Source of the DNA: a virus
Taxonomy: Duplodnaviria > Heunggongvirae > Uroviricota > Caudoviricetes
IMG/VR virus record: IMGVR_UViG_2684622769_000012
Direction: 5' to 3' (one strand)
Length of the DNA: 43,830 nt
Each line of letters starts with the position of its first letter. Position 1 is the first letter of the stretch. Below, piece after piece: positions 1-43,830 of this stretch. The notes under the pieces were generated by a model. That model had not been told where the DNA came from, did not search any database, and was given only the letters and a program-made list of their open reading frames with translations. Both the position numbers and the translations under genes were made by a program.

Positions 1-3000
1 ATACGCTATACCGTTAAAAATAATGGGCGGAATAATAATCTGGCGGTCAAAGTTATGATCATCGCTTATGGTGACTGTAACCGTCCCGTTTGGTGTTTCC
101 GTGTTACCCCACGTACCAGCCTGTTTCGGAAATGATTTGGATACAGCTTTAACGAAGTCACCTCTGACCTGAGTCGCCTCCAGCATGCCCTTAATCGTAC
201 AGTTTTCATTTACCGTGACATTGTTGAGCGTCCCGGCGTTCGCATTCACACTGCCACTGATATCCGCATTTTTAGCGGTCAGCTTTCCGTCCGGAGTCAG
301 GGAAAATGCCGATGGATTTCCACCGCTGGTAATGGTGGGGGCCGTCAGGCGTTTCAGGAACACGTCGTTCATGAATATCTGATCGCCCTGACCAACAAAC
401 ATCGGTTTTGTGTTGCCATTCGCAGGATTAACCATCGCAATCCTGTCCGCCGCCAGCAGCACCTGACTCTGCATGCCGTCAGGGGTGTTCTCAATACCGG
501 CACCAATACCCGCGATATAAAGGCGTCCGTCCTGCATCTGCTGCAGCTTCACAGCCCACATGCTGTTCAGGTTATTATTTGTATCAACCTGAACCTTCTG
601 TATCTGCTGAATTGCCGCACTCTGGTCTTCCAGTTTCTTATTGACGGTCTGCGTGATTTCATTGCTGACATCCGTAATGGACGTCCTGATTTCAGCCAGG
701 TCAGGCGCAAGCTGACCGTTATCAATCTGCGTCCACAGCTCCTGAGCCAGATGGGTTTTCCCTATCTCGCCTTTGAAAAAATCCAGATAACCGGATGCAT
801 CATCACTCGGCTGACCAACAGCCTCCACGAATGCCGATTTGCCAACGGTGTTCACACTGCGGATATAAAAGTAATAATCATGGCCCGGTTTGATATTGAT
901 ACTGGCGGCTATCCAGTACAGCGCCGTGCCAAGATAGCGTGCTGTGGTTTCAACCTGCCTGATATCCGCAATCCGCTTTTCCGAGAACCAGAACTCAAAC
1001 TGTACCGTCGGATCATAAACCGCAAGATGCGGCGTGGCGGTTATCTGAAAATAGCCCGGCGTCAGCTCAATCCGCGACAGCGCTGCCGGTGCGGCAATCC
1101 GGAACGATACCGACGCCGGATCGCCCTGCTGCCCCCACGCATTTACTGCCCGGACTGTCAGCCTGTAGTTCCCCAGCGCCAGTTGTGTGAAGCGGTAAGT
1201 GGTTTCCGTCGTCCGGGCCGTGCTGACCAGNNNNNNNNNNNNNNNNNNNNNNNNNNNNNNNNNNNNNNNNNNNNNNNNNNNNNNNNNNNNNNNNNNNNNN
1301 NNNNNNNNNNNNNNNNNNNNNNNNNNNNNNNNNNNNNNNNNNNNNNNNNNNNNNNNNNNNNNNNNNNNNNNNNNNNNNNNNNNNNNNNNNNNNNNNNNNN
1401 NNNNNNNNNNNNNNNNNNNNNNNNNNNNNNNNNNNNNNNNNNNNNNNNNNNNNNNNNNNNNNNNNNNNNNNNNNNNNNNNNNNNNNNNNNNNNNNNNNNN
1501 NNNNNNNNNNNNNNNNNNNNNNNNNNNNNNNNNNNNNNNNNNNNNNNNNNNNNNNNNNNNACCGTCAGGAACACGGCTCACTTTTACCTTCACGCCGTCG
1601 GTGACGGACTGGACCTCCACGCTGACCGGATTCCCCTGCCCGTCAACCAGGCTTATCAGCGTGGTGCCGGAGGATGGCAGCGTGATTTCACGGTCGAGCG
1701 TCAGCGTCCGGGTCTGGCTGTTCACCGCCAGCACGCGCCCGCCGGTGCGGATACCGGCATAGTCATCATCGCAGATTTCAATGACATCGCCCGGTACATG
1801 ACGAAGCCCTTCAGCACCCACGCTGAAATCCACGGTCTGCGTCTCCAGCAGTTCCGTTTTAATCAGCCACAGCCCGGCGCGGTGTGCCTGCCCCCGGCTG
1901 GTACAGCCAAAGGCATCCATCTTCGTGACGTTACGACCGTAACGGACAATGGCCTGCGTATCCTCCACAAGCTCTGTCGCCGTCTCCCAGCCGTTATCCG
2001 GGTCAATCCAGTTCACCTCAACGGCATTATGGCGGTCTTTCAGGGCGCTGAAACTGTAGCGGAACGGCGCGCCANNNNNNNNNNNNNNNNNNNNNNNNNN
2101 NNNNNNNNNNNNNNNNNNNNNNNNNNNNNNNNNNNNNNNNNNNNNNNNNNNNNNNNNNNNNNNNNNNNNNNNNNNNNNNNNNNNNNNNNNNNNNNNNNNN
2201 NNNNNNNNNNNNNNNNNNNNNNNNNNNNNNNNNNNNNNNNNNNNNNNNNNNNNNNNNNNNNNNNNNNNNNNNNNNNNNNNNNNNNNNNNNNNNNNNNNNN
2301 NNNNNNNNNNNNNNNNNNNNNNNNNNNNNNNNNNNNNNNNNNNNNNNNNNNNNNNNNNNNNNNNNNNNNNNNNNNNNNNNNNNNNNNNNNNNNNNNNNNN
2401 CCCCATGCCATAGCGCGGATGGGTCAGCATATCCCACAGACACCAGGCCATGTTGTTGCTGTATGCCGGTTTTAACGTTCCGTCCCAGATACCGCTGTAT
2501 TGCCGCGTCTGCGGATTATAGTTCGACGGCACCTGCAGAATGCGCCCGCGAAGATGATAATTACGGCTCACCTGCTGGCTGCCGAACTGCTCCGAATCCA
2601 CCTGTACGCCGACCAGTGCCGTGTTCGGGTAGCACTGTTTCACATCGATGATTTCGGTGTATGACGACCAGAGCGTTTTGTTCTGCAGCTGGTCTGTGGT
2701 GCTGTCCGGTGTCATCCTGCGCATCCGGATACTGAACGGGCGCGGAGGCAGGTTATCCACCACCACCGAGACCAGATACTGCGAGGTGGTTTTGCCCTTA
2801 ATGGTGATGTCTTTTTCCGTCACCCAGCCACCGTTACGCTGTATCTGAACCAGCAGGCGGACTTCCGACGGATTCCTGTCTCCCTTTGAGGTGGTTTCCA
2901 CCAGTGCCTGTACACCGAAGGTAAAGCGCAGACGGTCGATGTTTGCCGACGTGATGGTCCGGGTGATCGGCGTGTCATATTTCACTTCCGTACCCAGCAC

Positions 3001-3264
3001 CGTCTCGGAGCCGGAGGATTCAAATCCCTCCGGCGGTGACTGCTCCTGCTCACCTGCCCGGAACACCACCGTGACGCCGGAGATGTTGGTATTCCCCTCA
3101 CTGTCCAGCACCGGCGTACTGTTCAGCAGCACGCTTTTTAATCCATCCACCGGACCTTCAACCGGCCCTTCGCTGATGGCATCGATCACACTCAGCAGCT
3201 GCGTGGACTTCAGGTTGTCCTTCGCTTCGCGCGGGGTATGCCCCTTACTGCTGCCTTTACCCAT
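1..3264 (-). CDS. Tail tip host-specificity protein J (central tail fibre); 3' end runs off the window; interrupted by two N-masked blocks
   Basis: Reverse complement of 3201..3264 translates [28 protein letters not shown], the lambda gpJ N-terminus. The frame stays open to position 1 ([20 protein letters not shown] at the edge). Start ATG at 3262..3264. Confidence 0.85.
1231..1560. other. Run of 330 N (masked or unassembled) inside gene J
   Basis: Literal n characters in the sequence. Confidence 1.
2075..2400. other. Run of 326 N (masked or unassembled) inside gene J
   Basis: Literal n characters in the sequence. Confidence 1.
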
Positions 3265-3324
3265 TCCTCACGCTCCATAAACGACAAAACCGCCCGCAGG
3301 CGGTTTCTCATAAAACATTTTGCA

Positions 3325-3972
3325 TCAGCGACCAATCACCACAACCTGACCACCATCCCCTTCGTCTGCCGTGCTGATCTCCTGAGAAACCACACGTGAC
3401 CCCACGCGCATTTCCCCGTACAGAACAGGCAGAACATTACCCTGGGCAACCATGTTATCCAGTGACGAGAAATACGTGTTCTGTTTGCCGTTATCTGTAC
3501 TGGCTGCCGTGGGCGTCCTGGCTTTCGGTGCCAGCATCTGCGCCACACCACCCAGGATCATACTGGCCCCTGCTGCATACATACCCGATACAGCCGCGGC
3601 CCCCAGCCAGCCCACAGGGTTCCACCATGCCACCGCAATCAGCGCCGCACCCAGCACCGCCTGAAACACACCGCCACTTTTGGCACCCGCCAGACGCGGA
3701 ACGATGTGGATCACGGCACCATTTGCCAGCGGTTCATTAAGACGGGCAGATAATTCATTTTCGCCTGCATCACGCCCGGCAATGCGCACCTGATACCAGC
3801 CGTCGCTCAGTTTCTGACGAAATGCCGGGAGCTGTGTGGCCAGTGCCCGGATGGCTTCGGCCCCCGTTTTCACACGAAGGTCGATGCGGCGGCCAAATCG
3901 CTGCAAATCCCCGTAAAGGCAGATGCGTGCCATGCCCGGTGACGCCAGAGGGAGTGTGTGCGTCGCTGCCAT
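3325..3972 (-). CDS. Tail assembly protein I (lambda gpI-like)
   Basis: 215-aa ORF MAATHTLPLASPGMARICLYGDLQRFGRR...; position between K and J; overlaps the 3' end of K as in lambda. Confidence 0.8.
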   Translation of the reverse strand: MAATHTLPLASPGMARICLYGDLQRFGRRIDLRVKTGAEAIRALATQLPAFRQKLSDGWYQVRIAGRDAGENELSARLNEPLANGAVIHIVPRLAGAKSGGVFQAVLGAALIAVAWWNPVGWLGAAAVSGMYAAGASMILGGVAQMLAPKARTPTAASTDNGKQNTYFSSLDNMVAQGNVLPVLYGEMRVGSRVVSQEISTADEGDGGQVVVIGR

Positions 3973-4613
3973 TTGTCGGTATACCTCTCTCGTTTGCTCA
4001 GTTGTTCAGGAATATGGTGCAGCAGCTCGCCGTCACCACAGTAAATGGCGGCATGATTCGGCACCGATGAACCAAAACAGCACAGCAGCACATCGCCCGG
4101 CTGCGCCGTTGACAACGGCACCTGATACAGCCCTGTAGCCTCCAGATTATCCAGATAGAGATTCTGACCATTACGCCACCAGTCGTCCTCACGATGAAAA
4201 TCTGGCATCTCAATTCCCGCCAGATGGTAAGCGTCCCGGAACAGCGTGTAACAGTCCGTCACCCCGTGCTCAAAGCGCCGCCCGGTAAGATGTGGCACAC
4301 AGCGGAACTTGTGAATCGCCCCCCGGCAGACCAGCCACCACGGCAAATCACTCTGCACCTGCAGCCGCCGGTCGGCCTCACTCAGCCAGGGCAGACCACC
4401 GGGGTGGCTGTGGACCAGCGCCACAATCTCACCCTGCATCTCTGCCTGCAGCCAGTCCTCCGGAGCCATCCGGAAATACTCCTCCGGCTCACCGGAAATA
4501 TTCACGCAGGGAAAATATCTTTCCCCCTCCGGTGTTCTCACCACGAAGCCGCACGACTCCGCTGGCGCACATCGCCGGGCGTGCGCCAGAATCGCTGATT
4601 CTGTCTGTGTCAT
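3870..4613 (-). CDS. Tail assembly protein K (lambda gpK-like, JAB/MPN plus NlpC/P60-type domains)
   Basis: 247-aa ORF MTQTESAILAHARRCAPAESCGF... with HSHP motif and Cys-containing C-terminal half; between L and I. Confidence 0.8.
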   Translation of the reverse strand: MTQTESAILAHARRCAPAESCGFVVRTPEGERYFPCVNISGEPEEYFRMAPEDWLQAEMQGEIVALVHSHPGGLPWLSEADRRLQVQSDLPWWLVCRGAIHKFRCVPHLTGRRFEHGVTDCYTLFRDAYHLAGIEMPDFHREDDWWRNGQNLYLDNLEATGLYQVPLSTAQPGDVLLCCFGSSVPNHAAIYCGDGELLHHIPEQLSKRERYTDKWQRRTHSLWRHRAWHASAFTGICSDLAAASTFV

Positions 4614-4618: not shown

Positions 4619-5317
4619 TTACTGCGAAAGTTTGTTAATGGAAAGGAAGCCGCCAAAGTTGCCGACGTTATTGCGGAACTTACAACCGCTCAGGCATTTG
4701 CTGCATTTATCCTTCGTGATATCGGACGTTGGCTGGTCATATTCATCCGCGACAGCCGGACCGTGATAACCGCACTCATCACCGCGATAGGTCCAGGTGC
4801 AGGTATTAGCAAGCATGATGCGCCCCGGAAAAACAGCGCCGTCCGTTTCCGTCGGCGTGGACAGTACAAAGGAGGCACTGACCGCGCTCAGTTCGCTGCA
4901 CTGCTCAATACGCCAGCGGCTGATCACCTCCTGCTCCGGATCGGCGTCACTGTTTCCGTTGACGAAGTTCACCGCATCCAGAAAACGGGCGTAAACCTTA
5001 CGCCTGACCACCGTTCCGCCGACCAGACTCTGCAGGTCTTCCGCCATCCCGGTGACCATGCCGTGCAGATTAGAGACTTTCAGCGTTGGCCTTGCACTGG
5101 CACCTTTGCCGTTCATCTCAAATCCACTCCCCTGAATGGGATAGGCCTGATACTGCCGACTCTGCCAGGTGACAGACTCTCCTTTCTCGTTCTGCTCATT
5201 GCAGAAAAAGTAGCGATCCCCGCCTACCTCGGTCAGGTCGATTTCCCAGAGCACCACGCTGGCCGACTGCTCCGCACGAATGCATTCATTCAGCGTTTCC
5301 TGTTGTATGTCCTGCAT
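4619..5317 (-). CDS. Minor tail protein L (lambda gpL-like)
   Basis: 232-aa [36 protein letters not shown]..., with C-terminal Cys cluster; between M and K. Confidence 0.85.
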   Translation of the reverse strand: MQDIQQETLNECIRAEQSASVVLWEIDLTEVGGDRYFFCNEQNEKGESVTWQSRQYQAYPIQGSGFEMNGKGASARPTLKVSNLHGMVTGMAEDLQSLVGGTVVRRKVYARFLDAVNFVNGNSDADPEQEVISRWRIEQCSELSAVSASFVLSTPTETDGAVFPGRIMLANTCTWTYRGDECGYHGPAVADEYDQPTSDITKDKCSKCLSGCKFRNNVGNFGGFLSINKLSQ

Positions 5318-5655
5318 CAGATCACCACTTCGTCAAACTGACACGAAAAATCGGTATAGGTGATATGTTCTGTCGCTGACCACGTTCGACACACCACTCT
5401 GATTTTTCTGTTAATACCCGGCGGGCGCCAAAAAAAAGATTTATAGCCTTCATGCCGGGCTAAAAATTTTTCAAATGAATCACGTTCATTCGCCTCAACT
5501 TTGAAATCACAGGTGAAAACGCGCAGAGAATGATTAAGTCCATTTGGACTTCGTTGCTCATAACCATCACCAAATCTTACAGTTTTTATCGATGGTTTAT
5601 TTTCTGTTTTCATTCCATCCTCTGGTAACCAGTGAAATTCTTCCGTATTAGCCAC
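5317..5655 (-). CDS. Minor tail protein M (lambda gpM-like)
   Basis: 112-aa [24 protein letters not shown]...; start overlaps the end of the tape measure gene. Confidence 0.8.
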
Positions 5656-8600
5656 TTAACATTCCCCCATCACGTCGCATATTTAACAGATTGCCCTGCA
5701 CCCGCTGATCAACCATCCCCATAAGTGCTTTTATTGCCTGAGGGCCAATCTCTCCATTCTGGCCGTCATTTTGAATAGTGATTTGGTATACAGGGGCATA
5801 GGTAATATCTCCGCCTCCATTACCACTTTTACTATTAATAGCTCTGACACCAAGAGAACCATCGGAAGTTCGTGTTAATGGCATAATGGCTTCCGGTCCA
5901 GCCTCACCAAAAACACCAGCCCCTTTTGCAAAAGCAAAAAATTGCGGGGAATCATAAATACCGTTCGAATACGTGCTCAATGACGGAGACTCATAAACAC
6001 CGCCCTTTGCATTCGGAATAAATTTACTAATAGCACTCCCGATAGTTCCTAAAATCCCCCCAGAAGAACTGTTACTAATGCTGTCGAAAATCCCAGTAAT
6101 TGAAGCCTTTAATGCTATTCGACTAAGATCCGAAATCACGGAAGTAGCGAAAGAACGAAAATTTGCCTTGCCTGTCGTGACAAAATCACCCAGCGCATCG
6201 GTCATCCCATCAAACATCTGAGTCGTGGTTGATTTTATCTGCTCACTGATATCCTTAGTGTCATCCAGCCAGTTATTGAATCCCTGGGAGGCACCACTAA
6301 CCCAGTCTCCTGCCTGAATATCGAGCTGCTCGTTTTTCTGTCTGACAATTTCTTTTTCCCGTTCCAGAGCATCATTCAGAGCCTGCATTTTCTCTTGAAA
6401 AACATGATCTGACATTCCACGGGATTTATCTGCATAGTCACGTTCAAGTTGCAGACGCTGATTGTTATATCCATGTTCAATCCGCAGTAATTCCTGCTGG
6501 CGTTGCTGATTTTTATCGCCAACCCCATAACCAGCAATCTGAATATCATACCCCTGCTGACGATTATCAATCGAAGCCTGCAATGAATCACGCCATGCTG
6601 TTATTTCGGCGGATTCCTTGATTAGCCTGTTATTTTTTTCAATCGCAACATTTTTCTCCATCAACGTGGTTATTTCTTCCCGGTGTAAGAGAAGCGATTT
6701 CTGATCCTGGGTTAATTTCGATGATGGTCGTGACTCTAGGTCGGCAATCCGCTGACGCCACTTAACCAGTTCCTGTTCAGAGGAACTTAATTTAACGGTC
6801 AACTCAGCTTGTGAACTTAGTAACGCATTCTGTTGATTCAGATGATCAATCATTCGTTGGGCTGCATCATCAGAATAACCTTTCGCCTTTGGTTGCTTTG
6901 GATCTTTATAACGCTCATTTATTTGAGCGATAAGATTATTATATTCTTCCTTTGAATACTGATTCTTTAGCTTTTCCAGTTTTGCAAGTTCACTAGCTCT
7001 CTGCTGCTCCCGGGTCTGATATTGTTTTGAAAAGGCATCTGCTCTCTGTCTGAGTTCAATTCCTTCCTGTTGTCGCTTGTTGTAATCGTTTATTGATGAA
7101 TTTAGTACGTCCTGAGCAATTTTTTCTGCTTGAAGTACGCCCAATTGCTGCTTTAATCGTGCCAGCCTTTTATTTTGAGCTCCGCCATCTCCAATGCCAC
7201 CTAACCCGAAAACTCCGGGTCGGGTATTTTTTTCTATTTCATCAATTTGACGGAGAACATCTGAGATTTTTTGATCAAGGGAGGCCTCACGGCCAATATC
7301 CAGCATGGAATCCCATGCCCATTTTGCGGAGTCTGCGACAGCTTTCCATGCAGTCTCAAGATAACCAAGATTTTCTTTAATCTGGTTGGTGCGCTGGATC
7401 ATTGAGGATGAGTATTCTTCTGTCGCAATGCGGGCGGCCTCCTGCTGGTTCCCTTCATCCTGTAGCGCCTTAATCTGGTTATAAGTCGCAAGTGTCAGAA
7501 AATGGTACTGATCATTAAGTTTTGATATGGCACTGACAGGATCCTTTGCAATTTCATTGAAGTCATTAACCAGTTGTTCGGTTGATATTCCTGTTACTTC
7601 GCTCGTTTTTACTATCGCTGTCGTCACTTGCTCCAGCGAACTGCTCGCTACCTTTCCCGAACGCACAAGCTGATTTAATACTGCCGCCGCAGCACCAGTT
7701 GTCGAATCAGCCGCATTCCCGGCACGTTGAGCTATATCGCCCAATTGCCCGCTGGTTGTCCCCAACTGATTTCCGGTAAGAATAAGAGATTTATTAAATT
7801 CGTCCTGCTCCTGAGAGCCTTTATAGTAAGCCAGTCCTAAGACCCCAACGGCTGCTGCGGCCAGGGTAAAAGGATTAATTAATCCCAGCACATAAGAACC
7901 TACACCTTTGATCGCCGGGCCAATCCCACCGAACATATCTTTTAGCTGGCCGCCCTGCTGCATTAACACCATAAATGGCGACTGACCAGTGGACAACCCA
8001 ACAACAATATCCGTCATTTGTACAGGCAACATGCGCATAGCAAAAGCCGTTTGTTTTGCCGACATTCCGGTTTTGCTTAATTGTGATTGAGTAACCTCAA
8101 GCTCACTCCGCATAGCACGAAGTTTTCCAGAAAGCTCCTCATACATTTCAGGAGAAAGCATCCCCTTAGCTTTTGCTTCATTGAGCTGTTTCTGTTGTTC
8201 TACCAGACGATTAAAAGCAGTTCCGACAGGATCAAGTTGAGCAATCAGACGTTGCAAAGCAACAACCTGTTCATCATGCGCTTTTGCTGCTTCTCGCTCT
8301 GCCTGAGCCTCTCCGGTAAGCTCTCGCCGTGTTTCCTGTATTTTTCGGCTATAATTCTCAAACTGAGAACCATTTATTTTCCCGGATGCAAACGCAGCAT
8401 TAAGTTCATCATGCTGTTGTTCAAGATTTCTTAGCGCCGCAGCCAGAGGGTCGATCTTGTCCAGCATTCTTTGAAAGGCCTGAGCCTGCGCTTCCTGCTG
8501 GGCGGCAGCAAGTTTTCCGGCCTTCTCGGCTTCTCTCTGCGCTTGCGCAACCCCGCTCAATTCCTCTGTGGTTTCATTAAGTTTACGGACAAGAAATTCA

Positions 8601-8881
8601 TATTCTTCTTTATCAATAAGCCCTTTATCGAAAAATTTCTTTAATTCAGAATAGCGTCGACCGACAGTATCAATTGCGGCACCAACTGGATCAATAGCTG
8701 CTTTTAATTTTGCGAGCGCGTTCTTCTCATCTTCTGTTGCCTTAGTCACTTTCCCTGCGCTATTTGCAGCAGTTTCCCCAGCCTGCGTCATTTTGACTAA
8801 TGAGGAGGTCAGATTGTCAGCATTATTTTTCGCTCCAGTGCTATCAATAATTATTGCGAGACGCGAGGTTTGCTCTGCCAT
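5648..8881 (-). CDS. Tail tape measure protein
   Basis: 1077-aa ORF with long coiled-coil-like Ala/Gln/Glu/Lys-rich N-terminal half and Gly-rich internal segment; lies between chaperone G/GT and gpM. RBS AGGAGT upstream of ATG at 8881. Confidence 0.85.
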
Positions 8882-8900
8882 TTATTAAAACTCCTGACAA

Positions 8901-8926
8901 CAAAAAACCCACCGCGAAGTGGGTTT
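8901..8926 (-). terminator. Hairpin with T-run (minus-strand sense) between GT and the tape measure gene; possible partial terminator or attenuator
   Basis: Plus strand aaacccac-cgcgaa-gtgggttt (8905..8926, 8-bp stem) preceded by caaaaaa; on the minus strand the stem is followed by TTTTTTG. Confidence 0.4.
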
Positions 8927-9046
8927 CAGGCGACATAATAGTAGATATAGCGATTACGAGGCCACGCAATGCTTTTCTCCAGGAGCATCATCGATTTAAT
9001 TAAAGACACCATCACATCTCTGTAACAGAGTGTACGTAATTAACAA

Positions 9047-9816: not shown

Positions 9817-9864
9817 TCAATGCGTCCCCCTGTAGGGCAGTACCACAGGAGGAATAACGGAAAA

Positions 9865-10827: not shown

Positions 10828-10853
10828 AGGAGCCTCCTATGTCATTAATTGCG

Positions 10854-11246
10854 CTAGAGCGCGCGATATGGAATTTGAAGATTAAGCTGGAACCAGCCAT
10901 TCTTTTCGCCAACGGCTATTGAGGAAACAGCCTGGTAACTGAGACGATCGTCATCCTGAAACTCAAACAGTTCCCGCAATTTATCGGCTGTCTCAGTAAT
11001 GAGTTTTGAACCAGAACCTGCGGGGACAAATAACTGAATAATGATTATCCCCGTGCGATAAACAACCGGCCCCGCGCCAATTTCATTAACTCCAGCCTGC
11101 CCGGGAATATTACTTAACCGCGCCCAGATTAACTTACCGGAAGGATCGAACGTTGGCCCGTTCGGATACAATACGTCTTTTCCATCAATAATCGTCTGTG
11201 CCGTCATTCTGGAAATAACCGTATTTCTGATTTCAGTAAACTTCAT
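10854..11246 (-). CDS. Tail completion/terminator-type protein (head-tail joining module)
   Basis: 130-aa ORF between head-tail adaptor genes and the major tail gene; role assigned by position. Confidence 0.45.
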   Translation of the reverse strand: MKFTEIRNTVISRMTAQTIIDGKDVLYPNGPTFDPSGKLIWARLSNIPGQAGVNEIGAGPVVYRTGIIIIQLFVPAGSGSKLITETADKLRELFEFQDDDRLSYQAVSSIAVGEKNGWFQLNLQIPYRAL

Positions 11247-33266: not shown

Positions 33267-33288
33267 AAAAATTTCCTCCCGGTAAAAA

Positions 33289-34035: not shown

Positions 34036-34041
34036 GGTCAG

Positions 34042-34899: not shown

Positions 34900-34911
34900 G
34901 GAAACTTTTGC

Positions 34912-35334
34912 TTAATGAACAATGACAGAATCGTCGGAAGACCCGCCGCCGCTGAAATGCGCTTTCCGGTAAACGGCTTGGACTGCATCATCATGCGCAT
35001 CAATTGCCGTACTTAACGCTTCCTGCGCCGCCAGTAATGCACGGCGTTCCAGGGTATCGAAGATGCAGAGTCGGTGACGCAGCTCGCGCGGAAGGATTGC
35101 CAGAATTGCTGGGATCAGCTTCTGAATTTTTTCTCTTTGCGTTTTCGTTTCACCTTTCAACCAACGGTGATAGATATTCTGCTGATTATTCCAGTCCTTG
35201 CCTGGTACCAGGGGCAATTCGCCGCCCCCCTGGCGCAGATATTCTTCAGTAATGGCATTGGCTACCCATGCCTGCCCTTTTTCGGCTGCCAGGGCTAACA
35301 ACACTGACTCGATGTGCTCATGCTTGATTTTCAT
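34912..35334 (-). CDS. ydaT: YdaT (CII-like regulator / putative toxin of Rac)
   Basis: 140-aa ORF MKIKHEHIESVLLALAAEKGQAWVANAITEEYL... matches Rac YdaT as recalled. Confidence 0.75.
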   Translation of the reverse strand: MKIKHEHIESVLLALAAEKGQAWVANAITEEYLRQGGGELPLVPGKDWNNQQNIYHRWLKGETKTQREKIQKLIPAILAILPRELRHRLCIFDTLERRALLAAQEALSTAIDAHDDAVQAVYRKAHFSGGGSSDDSVIVH

Positions 35335-35585
35335 GAATCAACTCCCATCAGCTTTTTCGTAGTAGTTTTATTTCTGCCAATAGTTAAAATTACATCAGCA
35401 GAAAATAATCCGTTTGATGCATGAGCGATTTTTTCAGCGTAATTTGTTTCGCCGGTATATTCTGTGCGAGGCAATTTTCCGTTATCCATCCATTTGTAGA
35501 TTGCTCTTTGGCTGACACCACAAACGTCGGCCACAACAGAAACGCGAACAGTTTTGATTACATCTTCAAGTGTTTTCTGGTTCAT
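35331..35585 (-). CDS. Cro-like HTH regulator (YdaS position)
   Basis: Start MNQKTLEDVIKTV (ATG 35583..35585), RBS GAGGGTGAT; HTH-like VADVCGVSQRAIYKWMDNGKLP; divergent from the repressor gene; 4-nt overlap with ydaT. Confidence 0.6.
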   Translation of the reverse strand: MNQKTLEDVIKTVRVSVVADVCGVSQRAIYKWMDNGKLPRTEYTGETNYAEKIAHASNGLFSADVILTIGRNKTTTKKLMGVDS

Positions 35586-35664
35586 ATCACCCTCACAATG
35601 TGAACTTTGAGTACATGCTATAACAGAACTGACAGTACATTCAAGAGTGAATATCATTGAACTT
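35586..35664. promoter_or_regulatory. Divergent immunity-region promoter/operator between cro-like and repressor genes
   Basis: 79-nt intergenic region with direct repeats AGTACAT (35610..35616, 35634..35640) and TGAACTT (35601..35607, 35658..35664). Confidence 0.4.
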
Positions 35665-36084
35665 ATGGTTCATGAAGATAAAGCGCGTAAAGAGTTCGCC
35701 AGTAGGCTTGCGCTAGCCTGTGAAAACGCTGGTTATGAACAACATGGAAGGCAGGCAGAAATTGCCCGTCGAATGAAATTAACACCAAAAGCGGTTAGCA
35801 AATGGTTTAATGGCGAAACAATTCCTCGCCGAGAGAAATTAAGGGAATTAGCAACACTCATTGGAACAACACCAACCTATCTTTTGGGAGAGGATACAGA
35901 AGAAAGTGGACAGGTACGTTTCTATCAGGAGTTAAATCCAAGACAAAAAATCATCATTGACCTTCTGGACGAGCTCCCTGACAGTGAGACAGATGAACTT
36001 TTAAAAACTCTTGAGGAGAAAAAACAGAAGTACAATGCAATTTACGAAGAGCTAGCACGAAAGAAAAAACAAAAAGCCTCTTAA
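35647..36084 (+). CDS. CI-type repressor, XRE-family HTH (RacR position)
   Basis: HTH segment QAEIARRMKLTPKAVSKWFNGE; the ORF begins at GTG 35647; first ATG at 35665 (MVHEDKARKEF); acidic/basic C-terminal tail. Length differs from the 158-aa K-12 RacR as I recall it. Confidence 0.65.
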   Translation: MNIIELMVHEDKARKEFASRLALACENAGYEQHGRQAEIARRMKLTPKAVSKWFNGETIPRREKLRELATLIGTTPTYLLGEDTEESGQVRFYQELNPRQKIIIDLLDELPDSETDELLKTLEEKKQKYNAIYEELARKKKQKAS

Positions 36085-36158
36085 ACCAGCATAAATCCGG
36101 TAGCGTCCCCCTCCGGGTTTGTGCTTCACTTTATCCCATCTCATTTTTTTACACACAA

Positions 36159-36206
36159 AATGTACTTATAGTACTTTACATCAATGAACACAAAGTACAT
36201 TATATA
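36159..36206 (+). promoter_or_regulatory. Candidate early-left (pL-like) promoter with operator-like GTAC repeats
   Basis: TTTACA (36175..36180), 17-nt spacer, CATTAT (36198..36203); AGTAC/GTACT motifs at 36162, 36170 and 36194 shared with the divergent immunity region. Confidence 0.3.
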
Positions 36207-36374
36207 CCTACCAACCCACCCCGCCCCACAGAACGCAGGGCAATACTTCGAGTTACCAGGCAGTGGTCAGGGGTTAAGTAGCCAGCCCGAGGCGTATGAA
36301 CATGACGGCAGGGTTCAGATTTTGCAGTGCAGCAGGTTTCAGTTCCGCCACCCGGCGTTAAGGGGAGAGATAAG

Positions 36375-36509
36375 ATGGTGCATTACGAAGTAGTTCAGTA
36401 TTTGATGGATTGTTGCGGTATCACTTACAACCAGGCTGTGCAGGCTTTACGCAGCAACGACTGGGATCTCTGGCAGGCAGAAGTCGCTATACACAGCAAC
36501 AAGATGTGA
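36375..36509 (+). CDS. ydaG: Rac small protein YdaG-like (44 aa)
   Basis: MVHYEVVQYLMDCCGITYNQAVQALRSNDWDLWQAEVAIHSNKM; RBS GGGGAGAG upstream; gene order relative to sieB matches Rac. Confidence 0.6.
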   Translation: MVHYEVVQYLMDCCGITYNQAVQALRSNDWDLWQAEVAIHSNKM

Positions 36510-36519
36510 GATTCGCAAA

Positions 36520-36675
36520 ATGCAAAAAATCGACCTCGGCAACAACGAATCCCTGGTGTGCGGCGTGTTCCCCAACCAGGATGGAACGTTCACTGCCATG
36601 ACGTATACCAAAAGCAAAACATTTAAAACCGAAACTGGTGCGCGCCGATGGTTGGAGAAGCACACAGTAAGCTAA
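36520..36675 (+). CDS. ydaF: Rac small protein YdaF-like (51 aa)
   Basis: Hand translation MQKIDLGNNESLVCGVFPNQDGTFTAMTYTKSKTFKTETGARRWLEKHTVS; adjacent to sieB as in Rac; not in the ORF track (under 60 aa). Confidence 0.55.
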   Translation: MQKIDLGNNESLVCGVFPNQDGTFTAMTYTKSKTFKTETGARRWLEKHTVS

Positions 36676-37160
36676 CGATTAAAACGTCTACTCCTGCTGT
36701 TCCAGAATAACTTCATAAAATGGGAGTATTTTTCGGTGACGAGATAATAAGAACAGTTTGCGCTATCACTCTGATGTTGAATGATGCCCTTCCGTTCTAA
36801 TTTTTTCATAACCGGGTTACGGCAAGGAGAAGTGATAATAAGATTTCCTGTTTTAAGGAAATCTTTAAATACAGCGATTTCTTTCTCAGATAAACGAAGC
36901 AATACTCGTTGCTCTGGTAGTAATGAATAATGCTTTTGAATATGTGCTCGCAATCTTGAGAAGGAAATGGCGACCACGAAAGAAAAGGCAAAAACGATAA
37001 TCTGAAAGAGCCAAGGTATTTCAGTATAAGCATTGAATGCGACAGTAAACTCTTTCGGTATCAGCCAGAGAGTGAGACCAAAAATGATAATCGTATACAT
37101 AAGTATTTCGAGTGGCTCGTTAGCAAAAAGTTTCAACAATGGAGTAAATACATCCAACAT
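36672..37160 (-). CDS. sieB: Superinfection exclusion protein B
   Basis: Start MLDVFTPLLKLFANEPLE... (ATG 37158..37160); 162 aa matching Rac SieB; two TM segments. Confidence 0.85.
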   Translation of the reverse strand: MLDVFTPLLKLFANEPLEILMYTIIIFGLTLWLIPKEFTVAFNAYTEIPWLFQIIVFAFSFVVAISFSRLRAHIQKHYSLLPEQRVLLRLSEKEIAVFKDFLKTGNLIITSPCRNPVMKKLERKGIIQHQSDSANCSYYLVTEKYSHFMKLFWNSRSRRFNR

Positions 37161-37601
37161 ATCAATAACTCTCAACTGTAAGGGTATTGAAATGTTAACA
37201 CAAGCTCTCGCTGTAGGGGTATAGCCGAGACCACCGAAGCCCGGAGGTGGTGAAATAAAACCGGGCACAACACGAAGGCGCATTTCCGATATCCATAAAG
37301 AGTCGGTCTTGTCTGTTAAATTTAAATGGTGGGAGTGCGCCTCCGGTTGTAAATAACGACATTGCTGTGTGTAGTCCTGGCGGCATCAGTTTTTTTCTTG
37401 AAGTTCGGCTGATGTCCGCCCTTTTTAAAGTGAATTTTGTGATGCGGTGAATGCGGCTAAGCGCACGTGGCACAGTTAAAAGTCATGTTAGTCCTTATTG
37501 GTTTGGGTGGGAAAGCCGACTGTAATTGTTAACTGGTTGCAGTCACCTGGAGGCACCAGGCACCGCATCAACAAAGTTCATTTGTAAAAATGGAGATAAT
37601 T

Positions 37602-37823
37602 ATGATTGCACATCACTTCGGAACTGATGAAATACCACGTCAGTGTGTGACTCCTGGCGATTATGTTCTTCATGAAGGCCGGACATATATTGCCTCGGCA
37701 AACAATATTAAAAAGCGAAAACTATATATTCGTAACCTGACCACAAAAACATGCATTACTGACCGCATGATTAAAGTCTTCCTCGGTCGTGATGGTTTAC
37801 CTGTAAAGGCGGAGTCATGGTGA
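37602..37823 (+). CDS. kilR: Killing protein KilR (cell division inhibitor)
   Basis: [73 protein letters not shown]; RBS GGAG upstream of ATG 37602. Confidence 0.85.
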
Positions 37824-37993
37824 TGACTAAGAAAATAAAATGTGCTTACCACCTTTGCAAAAAAGACGTTGAAGAAAGCAAAGCTATTGAAAGAATGCTT
37901 CACTTCATGCACGGGATTTTATCAAAAGACGAACCGAGAAAATATTGCAGTGAAGCTTGTGCCGAAAAAGACCAGATGGCACATGAACTTTAA
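37823..37993 (+). CDS. ydaE: Rac small Cys-rich protein YdaE (56 aa)
   Basis: Hand translation [56 protein letters not shown]; ATG overlaps the kilR stop (TGATG). Confidence 0.7.
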   Translation: MTKKIKCAYHLCKKDVEESKAIERMLHFMHGILSKDEPRKYCSEACAEKDQMAHEL

Positions 37994-38067
37994 TTAATTG
38001 ACTATTCGAAACTGAATTTATGCCAGAAATGGCAGGTATTCGCTCAACCTTAATTAAGGAGAAAAAC

Positions 38068-38343
38068 ATGATTACCAATTATGAAGCCACTGTTGTAACT
38101 ACCGATGACATTGTTCACGAGGTGAATCTGGAAGGAAAGCGCATTGGCTACGTAATTAAAACAGAAAATAAAGAAACCCCATTCACTGTGGTTGATATCG
38201 ATGGTCCATCAGGCAACGTAAAAACACTTGATGAAGGTGTCAAAAAAATGTGCCTGGTGCATATCGGAAAGAATCTGCCCGCAGAAAAAAAAGCCGAATT
38301 TCTGGCAACTCTAATTGCAATGAAATTAAAAGGTGAAATCTGA
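38068..38343 (+). CDS. racC: RacC
   Basis: MITNYEATVVTTDDIVHEVNLEGKRIGYVIKTENKETPFTVVDIDG...; RBS AAGGAG upstream of ATG 38068. Confidence 0.8.
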   Translation: MITNYEATVVTTDDIVHEVNLEGKRIGYVIKTENKETPFTVVDIDGPSGNVKTLDEGVKKMCLVHIGKNLPAEKKAEFLATLIAMKLKGEI

Positions 38344-38444
38344 AAGAAATAGCCTGCGTATGGCGCAGGCTATGAACAGTGTGTATCCGGCAAGATCATT
38401 CACTGAACAAAACGAATTTTAATCTGAGTTGAGGTTAAAAAACA

Positions 38445-41045
38445 ATGAGCACAAAACCACTCTTCCTGTTACGGAAAGCGAAAAAATCATCCGGTGAACC
38501 TGACGTCGTCCTGTGGGCAAGCAACGATTTTGAATCGACCTGTGCCACTCTGGACTACCTGATCGTTAAGTCAGGTAAAAAACTGAGCAGCTATTTTAAA
38601 GCTGTTGCCACGAATTTTCCTGTCGTTAATGACCTGCCCGCTGAAGGTGAGATCGATTTTACCTGGAGTGAACGCTATCAACTCAGCAAAGACTCCATGA
38701 CATGGGAACTAAAACCGGGAGCAGCACCAGACAACGCTCACTATCAAGGCAATACCAACGTCAACGGCGAAGACATGACTGAGATTGAGGAGAATATGCT
38801 ACTCCCAATTTCTGGCCAGGAACTGCCCATTCGTTGGCTTGCTCAACACGGCAGCGAAAAACCGGTAACGCACGTTTCACGCGACGGACTCCAGGCATTA
38901 CACATTGCTCGGGCTGAAGAACTACCGGCTGTTACTGCCCTGGCTGTTTCCCACAAAACCAGCCTGCTCGACCCGCTGGAAATTCGCGAACTCCACAAAC
39001 TGGTTCGTGACACTGACAAAGTTTTCCCTAATCCTGGTAATTCAAACCTGGGACTGATAACTGCTTTTTTCGAAGCATACCTGAACGCTGACTACACCGA
39101 TCGAGGACTGCTGACAAAAGAGTGGATGAAGGGTAATCGTGTTTCACACATCACTCGCACGGCTTCCGGTGCTAATGCTGGCGGCGGAAACCTCACCGAT
39201 CGCGGCGAAGGTTTCGTACACGATCTGACGTCACTGGCGCGGGACGTAGCCACTGGCGTACTGGCCCGTTCAATGGATCTGGACATCTATAACCTTCATC
39301 CGGCACACGCTAAACGCATTGAGGAAATTATCGCTGAAAATAAACCGCCCTTTTCTGTTTTCCGCGACAAATTCATCACCATGCCTGGCGGGCTGGATTA
39401 TTCCCGCGCCATCGTGGTTGCGTCCGTAAAAGAAGCACCAATTGGGATCGAGGTCATCCCCGCGCACGTCACTGAATATCTGAACAAAGTACTGACTGAA
39501 ACCGATCATGCCAACCCTGATCCGGAAATCGTGGATATTGCCTGCGGTCGCTCCTCTGCCCCGATGCCGCAGCGAGTAACAGAAGAAGGAAAACAGGATG
39601 ATGAAGAAAAACCGCAACCATCTGGAACAACGGCAGTTGAACAGGGAGAGGCTGAAACAATGGAACCGGACGCAACTGAACATCATCAGGACACGCAGCC
39701 GCTGGATGCTCAGTCACAGGTAAATTCTGTTGATGCGAAATATCAGGAACTGCGGGCAGAACTCCATGAAGCCCGGAAAAACATTCCATCAAAAAATCCT
39801 GTCGATGCCGATAAATTGCTTGCTGCATCACGTGGTGAATTTGTTGACGGAATTAGCGACCCGAACGATCCGAAATGGGTAAAGGGGATCCAGACTCGCG
39901 ATTGTGTGTACCAGAACCAGCCAGAAACGGAAAAAACCAGCCCGGATATGAATCAACCTGAGCCAGTAGTGCAACAGGAACCGGAAATAGCCTGCAATGC
40001 CTGCGGCCAGACTGGCGGGGATAACTGCCCTGACTGTGGTGCGGTGATGGGCGACGCAACATACCAGGAAACATTCGATGAAGAGAGTCAGGTTGAAGCT
40101 AAGGAAAATGATCCGGAGGAAATGGAAGGCGCTGAACATCCGCACAATGAGAATGCTGGCAGCGATCCGCATCGCGATTGCAGTGATGAAACTGGCGAAG
40201 TCGCAGATCCCGTAATCGTAGAAGACATAGAGCCAGGTATTTATTACGGAATTTCGAATGAGAATTACCACGCGGGTCCCGGTGTCAGTAAGTCTCAGCT
40301 CGATGACATTGCTGATACTCCGGCACTGTATTTGTGGCGTAAAAATGCCCCCGTGGACACCACAAAGACAAAAACGCTCGATTTAGGAACCGCTTTCCAC
40401 TGCCGGGTACTTGAGCCGGAAGAATTCAGTAACCGCTTTATCGTAGCACCTGAATTTAACCGCCGGACAAACTCCGGAAAAGAAGAAGAGAAAGCGTTTC
40501 TGAGGGAATGCGCAAGCACAGGAAAAACGGTTATCACTGCCGAAGAAGGCCGGAAAATTGAACTCATGTATCAGAGCGTTATGGCTTTGCCGCTGGGGCA
40601 ATGGCTTGTTGAAAGCGCCGGACACGCTGAATCATCAATTTACTGGGAAGATCCTGAAACAGCAATTTTGTGTCGGTGCCGTCCGGACAAAATTATCCCT
40701 GAATTTCACTGGATCATGGACGTGAAAACTACGGCGGATATTCAACGATTCAAAACCGCTTATTACGACTACCGCTATCACGTTCAGGATGCATTCTACA
40801 GTGACGGTTATGAAGCACAGTTTGGAGTGCAGCCAACTTTCGTTTTTCTGGTTGCCAGCACAACTATTGAATGCGGACGTTATCCGGTTGAAATTTTCAT
40901 GATGGGCGAAGAAGCAAAACTGGCAGGTCAGCTGGAATATCACCGCAATCTGCGAACCCTGGCTGACTGCCTCAATACCGATGAATGGCCAGCTATTAAG
41001 ACGTTATCACTGCCCCGCTGGGCTAAGGAATATGCAAATGACTAA
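38445..41045 (+). CDS. recE: Exodeoxyribonuclease VIII (RecE)
   Basis: 866-aa ORF; C-terminal nuclease domain region ...[14 protein letters not shown]...; same length as K-12 RecE; stop overlaps the recT start. Confidence 0.9.
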
Positions 41046-41847
41046 GCAACCACCAATCGCAAAAGCCGATCTGCAAAAAACTCAGGGAAACCGTGCACCA
41101 GCAGCAATTAAAAATAACGACGTGATTAGTTTTATTAACCAGCCATCAATGAAAGAGCAACTGGCAGCAGCTCTTCCACGCCATATGACGGCTGAACGTA
41201 TGATCCGTATCGCCACCACAGAAATTCGTAAAGTTCCGGCGTTAGGAAACTGTGACACTATGAGTTTTGTCAGTGCAATCGTACAGTGTTCACAGCTCGG
41301 ACTTGAGCCCGGTAGCGCCCTCGGTCATGCATATTTACTGCCTTTTGGTAATAAAAACGAAAAGAGCGGTAAAAAAAACGTTCAGCTAATCATTGGCTAT
41401 CGCGGCATGATTGATCTGGCTCGCCGTTCAGGTCAAATCGCCAGCCTGTCAGCCCGTGTTGTCCGTGAAGGTGACGAGTTTAATTTCGAATTTGGCCTTG
41501 ATGAAAAGTTAATACACCGCCCAGGAGAAAACGAAGATGCCCCTGTTACCCACGTCTATGCTGTCGCAAGACTGAAAGACGGAGGTACTCAGTTTGAAGT
41601 TATGACGCGCAAACAGATTGAGCTGGTGCGCAGCCAGAGTAAAGCTGGTAATAACGGGCCGTGGGTAACTCACTGGGAAGAAATGGCAAAGAAAACGGCT
41701 ATTCGTCGCCTGTTCAAATATCTGCCCGTATCAATTGAGATCCAGCGTGCAGTATCAATGGATGAAAAGGAACCACTGACAATCGATCCTGCAGATTCCT
41801 CTGTATTAACCGGGGAATACAGTGTAATCGATAATTCAGAGGAATAA
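41038..41847 (+). CDS. recT: Recombinase RecT (single-strand annealing protein)
   Basis: Start [28 protein letters not shown] (ATG 41038..41040) within ATGACTAA overlap with the recE stop; 269 aa. Confidence 0.9.
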
Positions 41848-41902
41848 TTCAGCCTGGCGGTGTAATGCACCGCCAACTTGAAATATTTTTATGAGAAAAA
41901 TT

Positions 41903-42052
41903 ATGAGATATGACAATGTTAAACCATGTCCATTTTGTGGTTGTCCATCAGTAACGGTGAAAGCCATTTCAGGATATTACCGAGCGAAGTGTAACGGATG
42001 CGAATCCCGAACCGGTTATGGTGGAAGTGAAAAAGAAGCACTCGAACGATGA
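41903..42052 (+). CDS. ralR: Restriction alleviation protein Lar/RalR, apparently truncated by an in-frame TGA at codon 50 of the 64-codon reading frame
   Basis: MRYDNVKPCPFCGCPSVTVKAISGYYRAKCNGCESRTGYGGSEKEALER then TGA; the same frame continues NKRTTGNNNGGVHV to TAA, which would give a 64-aa protein; an upstream in-frame ATG at 41891 is an alternative start. Confidence 0.6.
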   Translation: MRYDNVKPCPFCGCPSVTVKAISGYYRAKCNGCESRTGYGGSEKEALER

Positions 42053-42089
42053 AATAAACGAACCACTGGAAATAATAATGGAGGTGTTC

Positions 42090-42278
42090 ATGTATAAAAT
42101 TACCGCCACTATTGAAAAGGAAGGTGGCACTCCTACTAACTGGACAAGATATTCAAAATCTAAACTAACGAAATCAGAATGCGAAAAAATGCTCTCAGGT
42201 AAAAAAGAAGCAGGCGTTTCCAGAGAGCAGAAAGTAAAACTGATAAATTTTAATTGCGAGAAACTTCAGTCCTCGTGA
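42090..42278 (+). CDS. ydaC: Rac small protein YdaC (DUF1187)
   Basis: MYKITATIEKEGGTPTNWTRYSKSKLTKSECEKMLSGKKEAGVSREQKVKLINFNCEKLQSS; RBS GGAGG 5 nt upstream of ATG 42090. Confidence 0.7.
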   Translation: MYKITATIEKEGGTPTNWTRYSKSKLTKSECEKMLSGKKEAGVSREQKVKLINFNCEKLQSS

Positions 42279-42377
42279 ATTGCATTGTATTCAAATTAAA
42301 ACTTCATAGCTGATTATTAATAATCAACATCGGGCGTCAATTTAAGTCTAACATTGGCGCCTGCCAGAGGTGATGCG

Positions 42378-42593
42378 ATGGCACAAGTAATCTTTAATGA
42401 AGAGTGGATGGTTGAATACGGCCTGATGCTTCGCACTGGTCTGGGGGCCAGACAAATTGAAGCATACCGCCAGAACTGTTGGGTGGAAGGCTTCCACTTC
42501 AAACGAGTATCTCCTTTAGGGAAGCCAGACAGTAAGCGAGGGATTATCTGGTATAACTATCCAAAGATAAATCAGTTTATCAAAGACTCATGA
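42378..42593 (+). CDS. xisR: Excisionase XisR (YdaQ)
   Basis: [71 protein letters not shown] (71 aa); RBS GAGGTGA upstream; immediately upstream of int. Confidence 0.8.
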
Positions 42594-42594
42594 T

Positions 42595-43830
42595 ATGTCT
42601 AAATTACCAACAGGTGTCGAGATTCGAGGTAAATACATTCGCATCTGGTTCATGTTTCGAGGAAAACGATGTCGGGAAACATTGAAAGGCTGGGAGGTTA
42701 CTAACAGTAACATTAAAAAAGCCGGGAATTTAAGAGCGTTGATAGTTCATGAAATCAATTCCGGTGAGTTTGAGTATTTAAGACGTTTTCCCCAGTCCAG
42801 CACTGGGGCAAAAATGGTGACAACGAGGGTCATAAAAACGTTCGGGGAGCTTTGTGATATCTGGACAAAAATTAAAGAAACAGAGTTAACAACAAACACA
42901 ATGAAGAAAACGAAATCACAATTAAAAACACTCAGGATAATAATTTGTGAGAGTACTCCGATATCGCATATTCGTTATAGCGATATCTTAAACTACCGGA
43001 ATGAACTGCTGCATGGAGAAACGCTTTACCTGGATAATCCAAGATCCAACAAAAAAGGAAGAACCGTGCGCACAGTTGATAACTATATCGCCCTGCTCTG
43101 TTCGTTGTTACGTTTTGCGTATCAGTCGGGATTTATATCAACCAAACCATTTGAAGGAGTAAAGAAATTACAGAGAAACAGAATAAAGCCTGACCCGTTA
43201 TCTAAAACAGAATTCAATGCATTAATGGAAAGTGAAAAAGGACAGAGCCAGAACTTGTGGAAATTTGCCGTATACTCCGGGCTTCGTCACGGGGAACTGG
43301 CTGCTCTGGCGTGGGAGGATGTGGATTTCGAGAAGGGAGTTGTGAATGTCAGAAGAAACCTGACGATACTGGATATGTTCGGTCCCCCAAAAACAAATGC
43401 GGGGATCCGGACGGTAACACTACTGCAGCCTGCTCTTGAAGCACTGAAGGAGCAATACAAACTGACCGGGCATCATCGCAAAAGCGAAATCACTTTTTAT
43501 CATCGGGAGTACGGCAGAACCGAAAAGCAAAAACTGCATTTTGTTTTCATGCCCAGAGTGTGTAACGGAAAACAGAAACCTTATTACTCGGTAAGCAGTT
43601 TGGGTGCGAGATGGAATGCAGCAGTAAAACGTGCTGGTATTCGCCGCCGTAATCCGTACCATACGCGGCATACTTTTGCCTGCTGGCTGTTGACGGCAGG
43701 AGCGAACCCGGCGTTTATAGCCAGCCAGATGGGGCATGAAACTGCGCAGATGGTGTATGAAATTTACGGTATGTGGATTGATGACATGAACGACGAACAG
43801 GTAGCCATGTTGAATGCGCGGTTATCGTAG
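42595..43830 (+). CDS. intR: Tyrosine integrase IntR
   Basis: 411-aa ORF; C-terminal catalytic region with ...HTRHTFACWLL...Y...; stop TAG is the last three bases of the window. Confidence 0.9.
   Translation: MSKLPTGVEIRGKYIRIWFMFRGKRCRETLKGWEVTNSNIKKAGNLRALIVHEINSGEFEYLRRFPQSSTGAKMVTTRVIKTFGELCDIWTKIKETELTTNTMKKTKSQLKTLRIIICESTPISHIRYSDILNYRNELLHGETLYLDNPRSNKKGRTVRTVDNYIALLCSLLRFAYQSGFISTKPFEGVKKLQRNRIKPDPLSKTEFNALMESEKGQSQNLWKFAVYSGLRHGELAALAWEDVDFEKGVVNVRRNLTILDMFGPPKTNAGIRTVTLLQPALEALKEQYKLTGHHRKSEITFYHREYGRTEKQKLHFVFMPRVCNGKQKPYYSVSSLGARWNAAVKRAGIRRRNPYHTRHTFACWLLTAGANPAFIASQMGHETAQMVYEIYGMWIDDMNDEQVAMLNARLS

Follow-up and report, generated by a model that had tools for sequence, protein, structure and literature searches.

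A probable Rac-type lambdoid prophage without the deletions carried by Rac of Escherichia coli K-12

Rac is the defective prophage that was described first, and the copy in Escherichia coli K-12 has long been accepted as a deletion remnant. We analysed the IMG/VR virus record IMGVR_UViG_2684622769_000012, a stretch of 43,830 nucleotides (below, 'the window'; all coordinates refer to it unless stated otherwise), which is very probably about 44 kb of a single lambdoid, ttcA-integrating prophage of the Rac type without the deletions of the K-12 copy. A map of open reading frames (ORFs) combined with Pfam matches revealed the plan of a lambdoid genome: int–xis, recombination genes, a divergent repressor–cro pair, replication genes, a nin–Q region, lysis genes and then packaging, head and tail genes. 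The late genes lie on the minus strand and the early-left genes on the plus strand. The only integrase gene is at the right end, where its stop codon closes the window, and no tRNA gene was found in the 43,830 nucleotides, including the region downstream of the Q-like gene. Both attachment (att) sites, lom, the side tail fibre gene with its assembly gene (stf and tfa) and the end of J fall beyond the window edges.

This layout corresponds to the standard order of a temperate siphovirus. The int and xis genes are followed by recET and the other early-left genes, a repressor/Cro-like switch with three operator-like repeats, the cII-like ydaT, the replication genes ydaU and ydaV, a variable cargo slot, and nin-type genes with a Q-like antiterminator. 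A pinholin/signal-arrest-release (SAR) endolysin/spanin cassette, trkG as cargo, a ParB-like gene with a glycosyltransferase, the terminase, a P22-type head and a lambda-type tail complete the order. A first-pass annotation made from the sequence alone had named a Q-like gene, a lysis cassette, terminase, portal, capsid and the tail genes H, M, L, K, I and J, and each of these is confirmed by Pfam, J by its N-terminus alone. The element is of a known kind: full-sized Rac-like prophages have been published, and a 99.9% identical copy is annotated in RefSeq in strain NCTC10444.

Comparison by blastn with the cryptic prophage Rac of E. coli K-12 MG1655 (NC_000913.3, 1411899-1434958) yielded four collinear blocks, which fix the deletion points that the first-pass annotation had proposed to map. 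The rightmost block (36209-43830, 98.7% identity) contains int, xis, ydaC/rcbA, ralR, recT, recE, racC, ydaE, kilR, sieB, ydaF and ydaG, and the next (32817-35340, 98.3%) contains ydaT, ydaU, ydaV and the first 151 codons of ydaW. A third (21264-23694, 99.3%) covers a stump of Rz, trkG and ynaK, and the leftmost (7947-9706, 99.9%, with 2 base differences in 1,760) covers ydaY and ynaA. The early gene set and trkG, matched to Rac in the earlier reading, are thus borne out by blocks of 98.3–99.3% identity. At the protein level, IntR and XisR are full length and 98.8% and 100% identical to their K-12 counterparts, respectively, while recE-recT, racC, kilR, sieB and ydaT-U-V are collinear with K-12 Rac at 98.3–98.7% DNA identity and encode full-length proteins. 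The RacR/YdaS immunity module of K-12 is absent, and the 868 bp at 35341-36208, where the immunity genes of the window lie, had no K-12 DNA match by blastn. We do not take this absence as excluding membership of the Rac family, because the immunity module is a less-conserved part of Rac (PMC5700373).

The segments between and beyond the blocks give an exact deletion map of K-12 Rac. Deletion A removed 9707-21263 (11,557 bp), a region with most of a ParB-like gene, the terminase, portal and capsid genes and the tail tube. Deletion B removed 23695-32816 (9,122 bp), from within Rz to within ydaW, and with it the end of the replication region, the cargo, the Q-like gene and the lysis genes. Deletion C extends from 7946 leftwards into lom, about 8,450 bp (8,449 bp as measured in strain MB51), and takes most of the tape measure gene followed by M, L, K, I and J. 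The three K-12 junctions fall within ynaK/ydaY, rzpR/ydaW and ynaA/lomR, with a microhomology of 2–3 nucleotides at each, and K-12 carries the insertion sequence IS5 in lomR. Three simple deletions plus the IS5 insertion would turn an element of this type into K-12 Rac; restoring A, B and C and dropping IS5 gives an ancestor of about 51 kb. K-12 Rac and the window share the integrase, the early-left and replication genes and trkG at 98.3–99.3% DNA identity; they differ by the three deleted segments, by IS5 in lomR and by racR/ydaS in place of genes for a 139-amino-acid repressor and an 84-amino-acid Cro-like protein.

In practical terms, the map also gives identities to the orphan genes ynaK, ydaY and ynaA of K-12. 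The ynaK gene corresponds to the first ~89 codons of the 262-amino-acid ParB-like gene of the window, and ynaA to the first ~312 codons of the tape measure gene; ydaY encodes a G-type tail assembly chaperone, and rzpR is Rz minus its first 7 codons. We found no paper stating that the K-12 stumps match this late region, in a literature search that did not cover Jobling 2016 or Iyer 2013. The published full-sized relatives, Rac-SA53 and Sp10, have different late regions, while that of the window matches the K-12 stumps.

The immunity region consists of a Cro-like gene (35331-35585, minus strand, 84 amino acids, Pfam helix-turn-helix) and a repressor gene (35665-36084, plus strand, 139 amino acids, Pfam helix-turn-helix only). 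Between these divergent regulators, a repeat search identified three operator-like repeats, TGAACTnnnAGTACA-like, at 35601, 35625 and 35658. The repressor had been described as shorter than RacR, which is correct (139 versus 158 amino acids); the two are similar only across the helix-turn-helix (12/33 identities), and the Cro-like protein of 84 amino acids compares with 98 for YdaS. A different immunity allele had also been suspected. It is indeed different, but it is the known Sp10/CP-933R allele of E. coli O157 and not a new one: the window from 34914 to 43830 is 99.2% identical to Sp10, with 138 of 139 residues of the repressor and 83 of 84 of the Cro-like protein conserved. As its immunity module is that of Sp10/CP-933R, the element is a mosaic of known parts. 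Among 5,426 complete E. coli genomes, this allele is present in 1,047, compared with 1,085 for racR/ydaS, many of the latter being laboratory K-12 strains.

Pfam revealed no peptidase domain (the LexA/CI-type S24 self-cleavage domain) in the 139-amino-acid repressor. Asadulghani et al. reported that the Sp10 repressor is likewise without a peptidase motif and that Sp10 is not induced by mitomycin C (PMC2669165). Sp10 does excise spontaneously and transfers to K-12 at low frequency, but no particles were seen from the K-12 lysogens (PMC2669165). Since the repressor of the window has no self-cleavage domain and is near-identical to that of the uninduced Sp10, a mitomycin C test would likely give a negative result even if the structural genes were fully functional, and mitomycin C would be the wrong induction test for this repressor.

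The distribution of related elements was analysed in the same set of complete genomes. At least 80% of window positions 1-22000 was found in one place in 679 of the 5,426 genomes, and at least 80% of the 24 kb spanning deletions A and B in 280; the K-12 deletion junctions are present in approximately 340. The copy in NCTC10444 (NZ_LR134092.1) is 99.88% identical over 2401-43830, with 49 mismatches and 1 indel. This copy lies between ttcA and uspF, has a single integrase gene with ttcA following int, and is bracketed by 43-bp imperfect att repeats 52,493 bp apart. Integration at ttcA is thus seen in the near-identical NCTC10444 copy, the window itself containing no att site. The PHASTER-called records vB_EcoS-666R9, -673R7 and -683R6, together with SPF_0923, have structural genes 99.4–99.6% identical to those of the window. 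The window and this sibling set, NCTC10444 included, differ in the cargo slot and in the J/I/K region, and some records also have another immunity allele; 683R6, for example, has racR and an IteAS-type cargo. The word 'Rac' does not occur in the source paper of the PHASTER-called records. In siblings, a sitABCD iron/manganese transporter replaces pinR/ynaE (positions 5778-9227 of our NCTC10444 locus L006 and 28143-31592 of locus L005); this distal part, flanked by the tail fibre assembly gene on one side and the att repeat on the other, is outside the window.

More distant relatives share parts of the early half. Rac is incomplete in K-12 and intact in EDL933 (PMC6379469), its size and content vary across strains (PMC5700373), and Sp10 and CP-933R have been described as Rac-like prophages at ttcA (PMC4632033). 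Sp10 of O157:H7 Sakai (CP-933R of EDL933) resembles the window from ydaT to int (99.2%) and, at 51.2 kb, is likewise full-sized. Unlike the window, it is without trkG, and its different late region combines a cos-type terminase with a protease-capsid head and carries other lysis genes as well as tRNA genes; outside the early region, only scattered matches of 76–91% to the window remain. Rac-SA53 (KU052037), an LT-II enterotoxin-encoding element described as a full-sized Rac-like prophage (Jobling 2016, cited in PMC5917428), shares int, recET and ydaU-type genes, with 40% of the early half matched at 92% identity, but only 6% of the structural region; no LT-II or pertussis-like toxin genes are present in the window. 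The literature places LT-II toxins in full-sized Rac-like prophages (PMC5917428).

The packaging and head genes occupy 12625 to 19826 on the minus strand. Pfam identified a P22-type coat protein, a DUF6651 scaffold-like protein, a Mu-F-like protein, a DUF4055 portal, a large terminase subunit (TerL), a small terminase subunit (TerS) and a 69-amino-acid ORF. Headful packaging is assumed because TerL is of the T4-like Terminase_6 type. By its head genes, the nearest catalogued phage is the lambdoid phage HK639 (NC_016158; genome 49.6 kb), which has the portal (69% amino acid identity), coat (75%), scaffold-like (61%) and Mu-F-like (50%) proteins as full-length counterparts in the same order. In its terminase, neck, tail tube, early genes and immunity, HK639 is either unrelated to the window or matches it at only ~30–37% identity. 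The 69-amino-acid ORF (19617-19826, minus strand) lies just upstream of the gene for the 364-amino-acid TerS and matches an internal stretch (residues 157–218 of 319) of another small-terminase PHROG; an earlier exchange of modules may have left it behind.

The tail genes, also on the minus strand, follow the lambda type. Four small neck/connector ORFs (11243-12582), a tail terminator (10854-11246, Pfam Phage_tail_terminator_5) and a tail tube (9865-10827, Pfam Phage_tube_2) have lengths identical to those in three sibling prophages. The tail assembly chaperone G with its G-T extension (9047 to 9714) is located between the tail tube and the tape measure, and has a −1 slippery site, A_AAA_AAG, at 9367, 6 nucleotides before the G stop codon, with the −1 frame open for ~105 further codons. 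Hence ydaY is a G-type chaperone gene, and the site of the G-T frameshift is intact. The tape measure protein (5648 to 8881, 1077 amino acids, H-like) matched Pfam TMP_2, TMP_4 and Tape_meas_lam_C. It is followed by M (5317-5655, Phage_min_tail), L (4619-5317, Phage_tail_L), K (3870-4613, Prok-JAB plus NLPC_P60) and I (3325-3972, Lambda_tail_I), whose lengths are the same in siblings. The tail tip gene J (1 to 3264) is incomplete, with the Pfam match FNIII-A_GpJ on its N-terminal piece. Its frame contains no stop over the 1088 codons between 3264 and base 1, of which 219 are masked, and continues past the left edge; the masked runs of N lie at 1231-1560 and 2075-2400, and about 270 nucleotides are missing, judging from MB51.

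To assess integrity, we mapped 50 coding sequences from the Prokaryotic Genome Annotation Pipeline (PGAP) annotation of NCTC10444 and added two ORFs, giving 52 genes. Every one of the 52 has an open frame with a start and a stop codon, J being masked and cut as described. For coding sequences with counterparts in MB51, 683R6 and SPF_0923, which include every structural gene, lengths agree within a few codons, the sole exception being ralR. Disabling mutations, which the first-pass annotation had named as a finding that would count against its reading, were not found in these 52 genes in the form of a frameshift, a stop or an insertion sequence.

We infer that the element may still excise, replicate and make particles, and consider the chances of full function to be roughly even. 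In favour of function count the absence of any disabling change found, the full-length counterparts of the head genes in HK639 (50–75% identical), the low divergence of the structural block between strains and the 2 bases in 1,760 that separate the K-12 remnant from the window. Several observations weigh against a complete and functional phage. The window has neither the end of J, lom and the side tail fibre genes nor either att site, and 656 bases of J are masked, so the window by itself does not show that the source element is complete. The ratio of nonsynonymous to synonymous substitution rates (dN/dS) is 0.25–0.67 in head genes compared with 0.08–0.09 in early genes, from no more than 15 substitutions. 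At 52.5 kb, the sibling prophage is larger than HK639 at 49.6 kb, a size that might strain headful packaging and perhaps leave no terminal redundancy. The GenBank 'phage' records that match were predicted as prophages by software and take in host genes. Salmonella phage SPF_0923 and the vB_EcoS-xxxRn records were considered as isolated phages bearing on viability and rejected: they contain host genes (uspF, ompN, sitABCD, abgABT) or are PHASTER calls, and so do not represent virion genomes. In a collection of 50,697 phage records, no isolated phage with this structural module was found, all close matches being predicted prophages.

Some of these observations also make the case for the most serious alternative, to which we would give only slightly less than an even chance: a prophage that is complete in its genes but grounded, at most excising, as K-12 Rac does, or being packaged very rarely, as Sp10 is. 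The repressor without a peptidase domain, and the failure of Sp10, with the same repressor, to be induced by mitomycin C or to yield particles from lysogens (PMC2669165), point the same way, as do the head-gene dN/dS, the size of the sibling relative to the nearest catalogued phage with related head genes and the absence of the structural module from isolated phages. Against it stand the 52 uninterrupted genes, whose counterparts in three independent strains, every structural gene included, have the same or near-identical lengths, the very few changes on which the dN/dS estimate is based, and the low divergence of the structural block. The 9.7 kb head-tail block (9865-19613; compared with our loci L001, L002, L004 and L005) is identical in NCTC10444 and differs by 0.2–0.4% in three other strains, whereas the neighbouring chromosomal dbpA-ttcA flank differs by 2.5% between 683R6 and NCTC10444, the only pair compared outside K-12; for the early genes, the synonymous substitution rate (dS) is about 0.04–0.06. 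This pattern fits, and hints at, a recent horizontal spread of the structural half, although recombination could explain it equally well. Recent movement would sit uneasily with the picture of Rac as an ancient fossil.

The other alternative, raised in the first-pass annotation, is that the structural half belongs to a second prophage adjacent to a Rac-like element; tandem integration of lambdoid prophages does occur at this site, where Sp10 entered K-12 adjoining Rac (PMC2669165), and trkG and low-GC cargo separate the lysis from the packaging genes, but we regard this as highly improbable given that K-12 Rac itself keeps the stumps ynaK, ydaY and ynaA in the same order at 99.3–99.9% identity, that the window has one integrase and no tRNA gene, that a single pair of att repeats brackets the entire 52.5 kb in NCTC10444, and that the Q-like gene, the lysis cassette and, after them, the late genes share one strand, the arrangement expected of a single lambdoid genome. 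That the structural and early regions are contiguous in one prophage is supported by the K-12 stumps, which lie exactly at the edges of the three deletions and keep the order and orientation of the window.

A pair of genes lies directly upstream of the terminase genes: a 262-amino-acid protein with a ParB N-terminal domain (20729-21517, minus strand; Pfam ParB_N and PHROG 620 over nearly its full length) and a TAGT-family glycosyltransferase (19804-20754, minus strand; Pfam PF20691 TAGT, E 4e-34, and PHROG 842 over nearly its full length). PHROG 842 is named 'beta-glucosyl-HMC-alpha-glucosyltransferase'. Viruses of Lactobacillus, Nocardia, Vibrio and haloarchaea also have the glycosyltransferase, at 40–47% identity and in several cases near the start of the genome record; its neighbour is annotated as a ParB-like gene at least in Lactobacillus phage jlb1 and in the haloarchaeal virus HHTV-2. 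A 2026 paper reports that ParB-like proteins activate phage thymidine dioxygenases (PMC13229309); no dioxygenase partner is named by Pfam, PHROGs or the PGAP annotation of any annotated ORF of the window. Our guess is that the pair may have a role in DNA modification. The full proposal, that undeleted Rac is a temperate phage still alive and passing between lineages of E. coli, and that its ParB-like/TAGT pair glycosylates phage DNA or marks sites on it with no dioxygenase partner encoded in the window, we consider unlikely. If it were true, Rac should be recoverable as a plaque-former and would offer a tractable E. coli model for the ParB–glycosyltransferase module.

PGAP annotates only the first 258 nucleotides of the ParB-like ORF in NCTC10444 (locus L001, 24239-24496), as a 'ynaK' pseudogene missing its C-terminus. 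We rejected this flag, as the open ORF covers nearly all of PHROG 620 and its length in three other strains differs by no more than 1 codon; the flag is apparently an artefact of the K-12 stump serving as the reference.

The early-left genes ydaG, ydaF, sieB (on the minus strand), kilR, ydaE, racC, recE, recT, ralR, rcbA/ydaC, xisR and intR lie at 36375 to 43830 and are 98.7% identical to K-12 and 99.2% to Sp10 by blastn. A RalA RNA (Rfam RalA, 225 bits) lies at 42096-42274 on the minus strand. The ralR toxin gene (region 41903-42274) has a premature stop, giving 49 amino acids compared with 64 in K-12 and 683R6, while the antitoxin RNA RalA is intact.

On the replication side, ydaT, ydaU, ydaV (DnaC-like), a full-length ydaW (DUF1627) and a Ren-like DUF977 gene are found at 32073 to 35334 on the minus strand (blastn 98.3% to K-12; PHROG 142). 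Between DUF977 and DUF1367 lies the variable cargo slot (28936 to 32003), which is low in GC. By Pfam, it holds a DUF1971 gene (28936-29274, plus strand), a 333-amino-acid ORF with a weak GNAT match (29895-30896, minus strand) and a HEPN-family ORF (minus strand, from 30912 to 31874 or 32003, ~320 amino acids, HEPN_RES_NTD1), whose homologues carry PF18870/PF18735 and also HEPN_RiboL-PSP. The slot looks like a defence-gene hotspot, because sibling prophages carry IteAS, Sll1717-type ATPase or AIPR genes at the same place. The two cargo ORFs were considered as a known defence system and rejected, as PADLOC returned no match for the slot cargo. A fixed two-gene system was also rejected, since in Aeromonas a HEPN homologue stands alone at a prophage end without the 333-amino-acid partner; a distant homologue is located in an unrelated chromosomal context, and searches with the accession numbers of the cargo proteins returned nothing. 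As the slot differs among sibling prophages, the cargo lost from K-12 is not inferable. The suggestion that the element shows which accessory genes an ancestral Rac carried therefore stands for trkG and the ParB-like/glycosyltransferase pair, which are common to siblings, and fails for the cargo slot.

A hairpin at 28885-28938 (plus strand, −26.8 kcal/mol, z = −5.8), in which CCUCCAAAA pairs with UUUUGGAGG, covers the ribosome-binding site of the DUF1971 gene. It may control translation or, read on the opposite strand, act as a terminator. The sole 1-bp indel relative to NCTC10444 was examined as a possible frameshift and rejected: it is a T4/T5 run at 28919-28923, in the untranslated hairpin stem upstream of the DUF1971 gene.

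The nin-type region (26694 to 28122, minus strand) comprises a DUF1367 gene, a YbcO-family nuclease and the Q-like antiterminator (26694-27236; DUF1133 plus a borderline Phage_antitermQ match in Pfam). The lysis cassette, on the same strand, has a P21-type holin with a dual start at Met1/Met4 (24208-24423, Phage_holin_2_1), a lysozyme with a G/A-rich N-terminal SAR-like membrane segment (23711-24208, Phage_lysozyme) and Rz with an embedded Rz1 lipoprotein frame (23250-23714, Phage_lysis). From their Pfam matches and their resemblance to phage 21, we take the first two to be of the pinholin and SAR endolysin types. The trkG potassium transporter gene (21655 to 23112, minus strand, GC 0.39), placed as cargo between the lysis and packaging genes, encodes a protein 99.6% identical to K-12 TrkG.

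Two paralogous ORFs with a TolA C-terminal domain lie between the Q-like gene and the holin, at 24675-25070 (124/131 amino acids) and 25221-25649 (142 amino acids) on the minus strand (Pfam TolA, E 1e-14 and 2e-23, respectively). Stx phages carry their toxin genes between Q and the holin. The TolA ORFs may hinder other phages or colicins from entering by a TolA-dependent route. A tolA pseudogene flag in the PGAP annotation of NCTC10444 was set aside, the 142-amino-acid TolA-C ORF being open and identical in MB51. Finally, an RNA of the STnc100 family (25760 to 25946, minus strand; Rfam RF02076, 86.6 bits, gathering score 47) sits in the 1-kb gap downstream of the Q-like gene, where siblings and Sp10 have tRNA genes, and is probably the leader transcript of the late operon, from the late promoter, on which Q would act.

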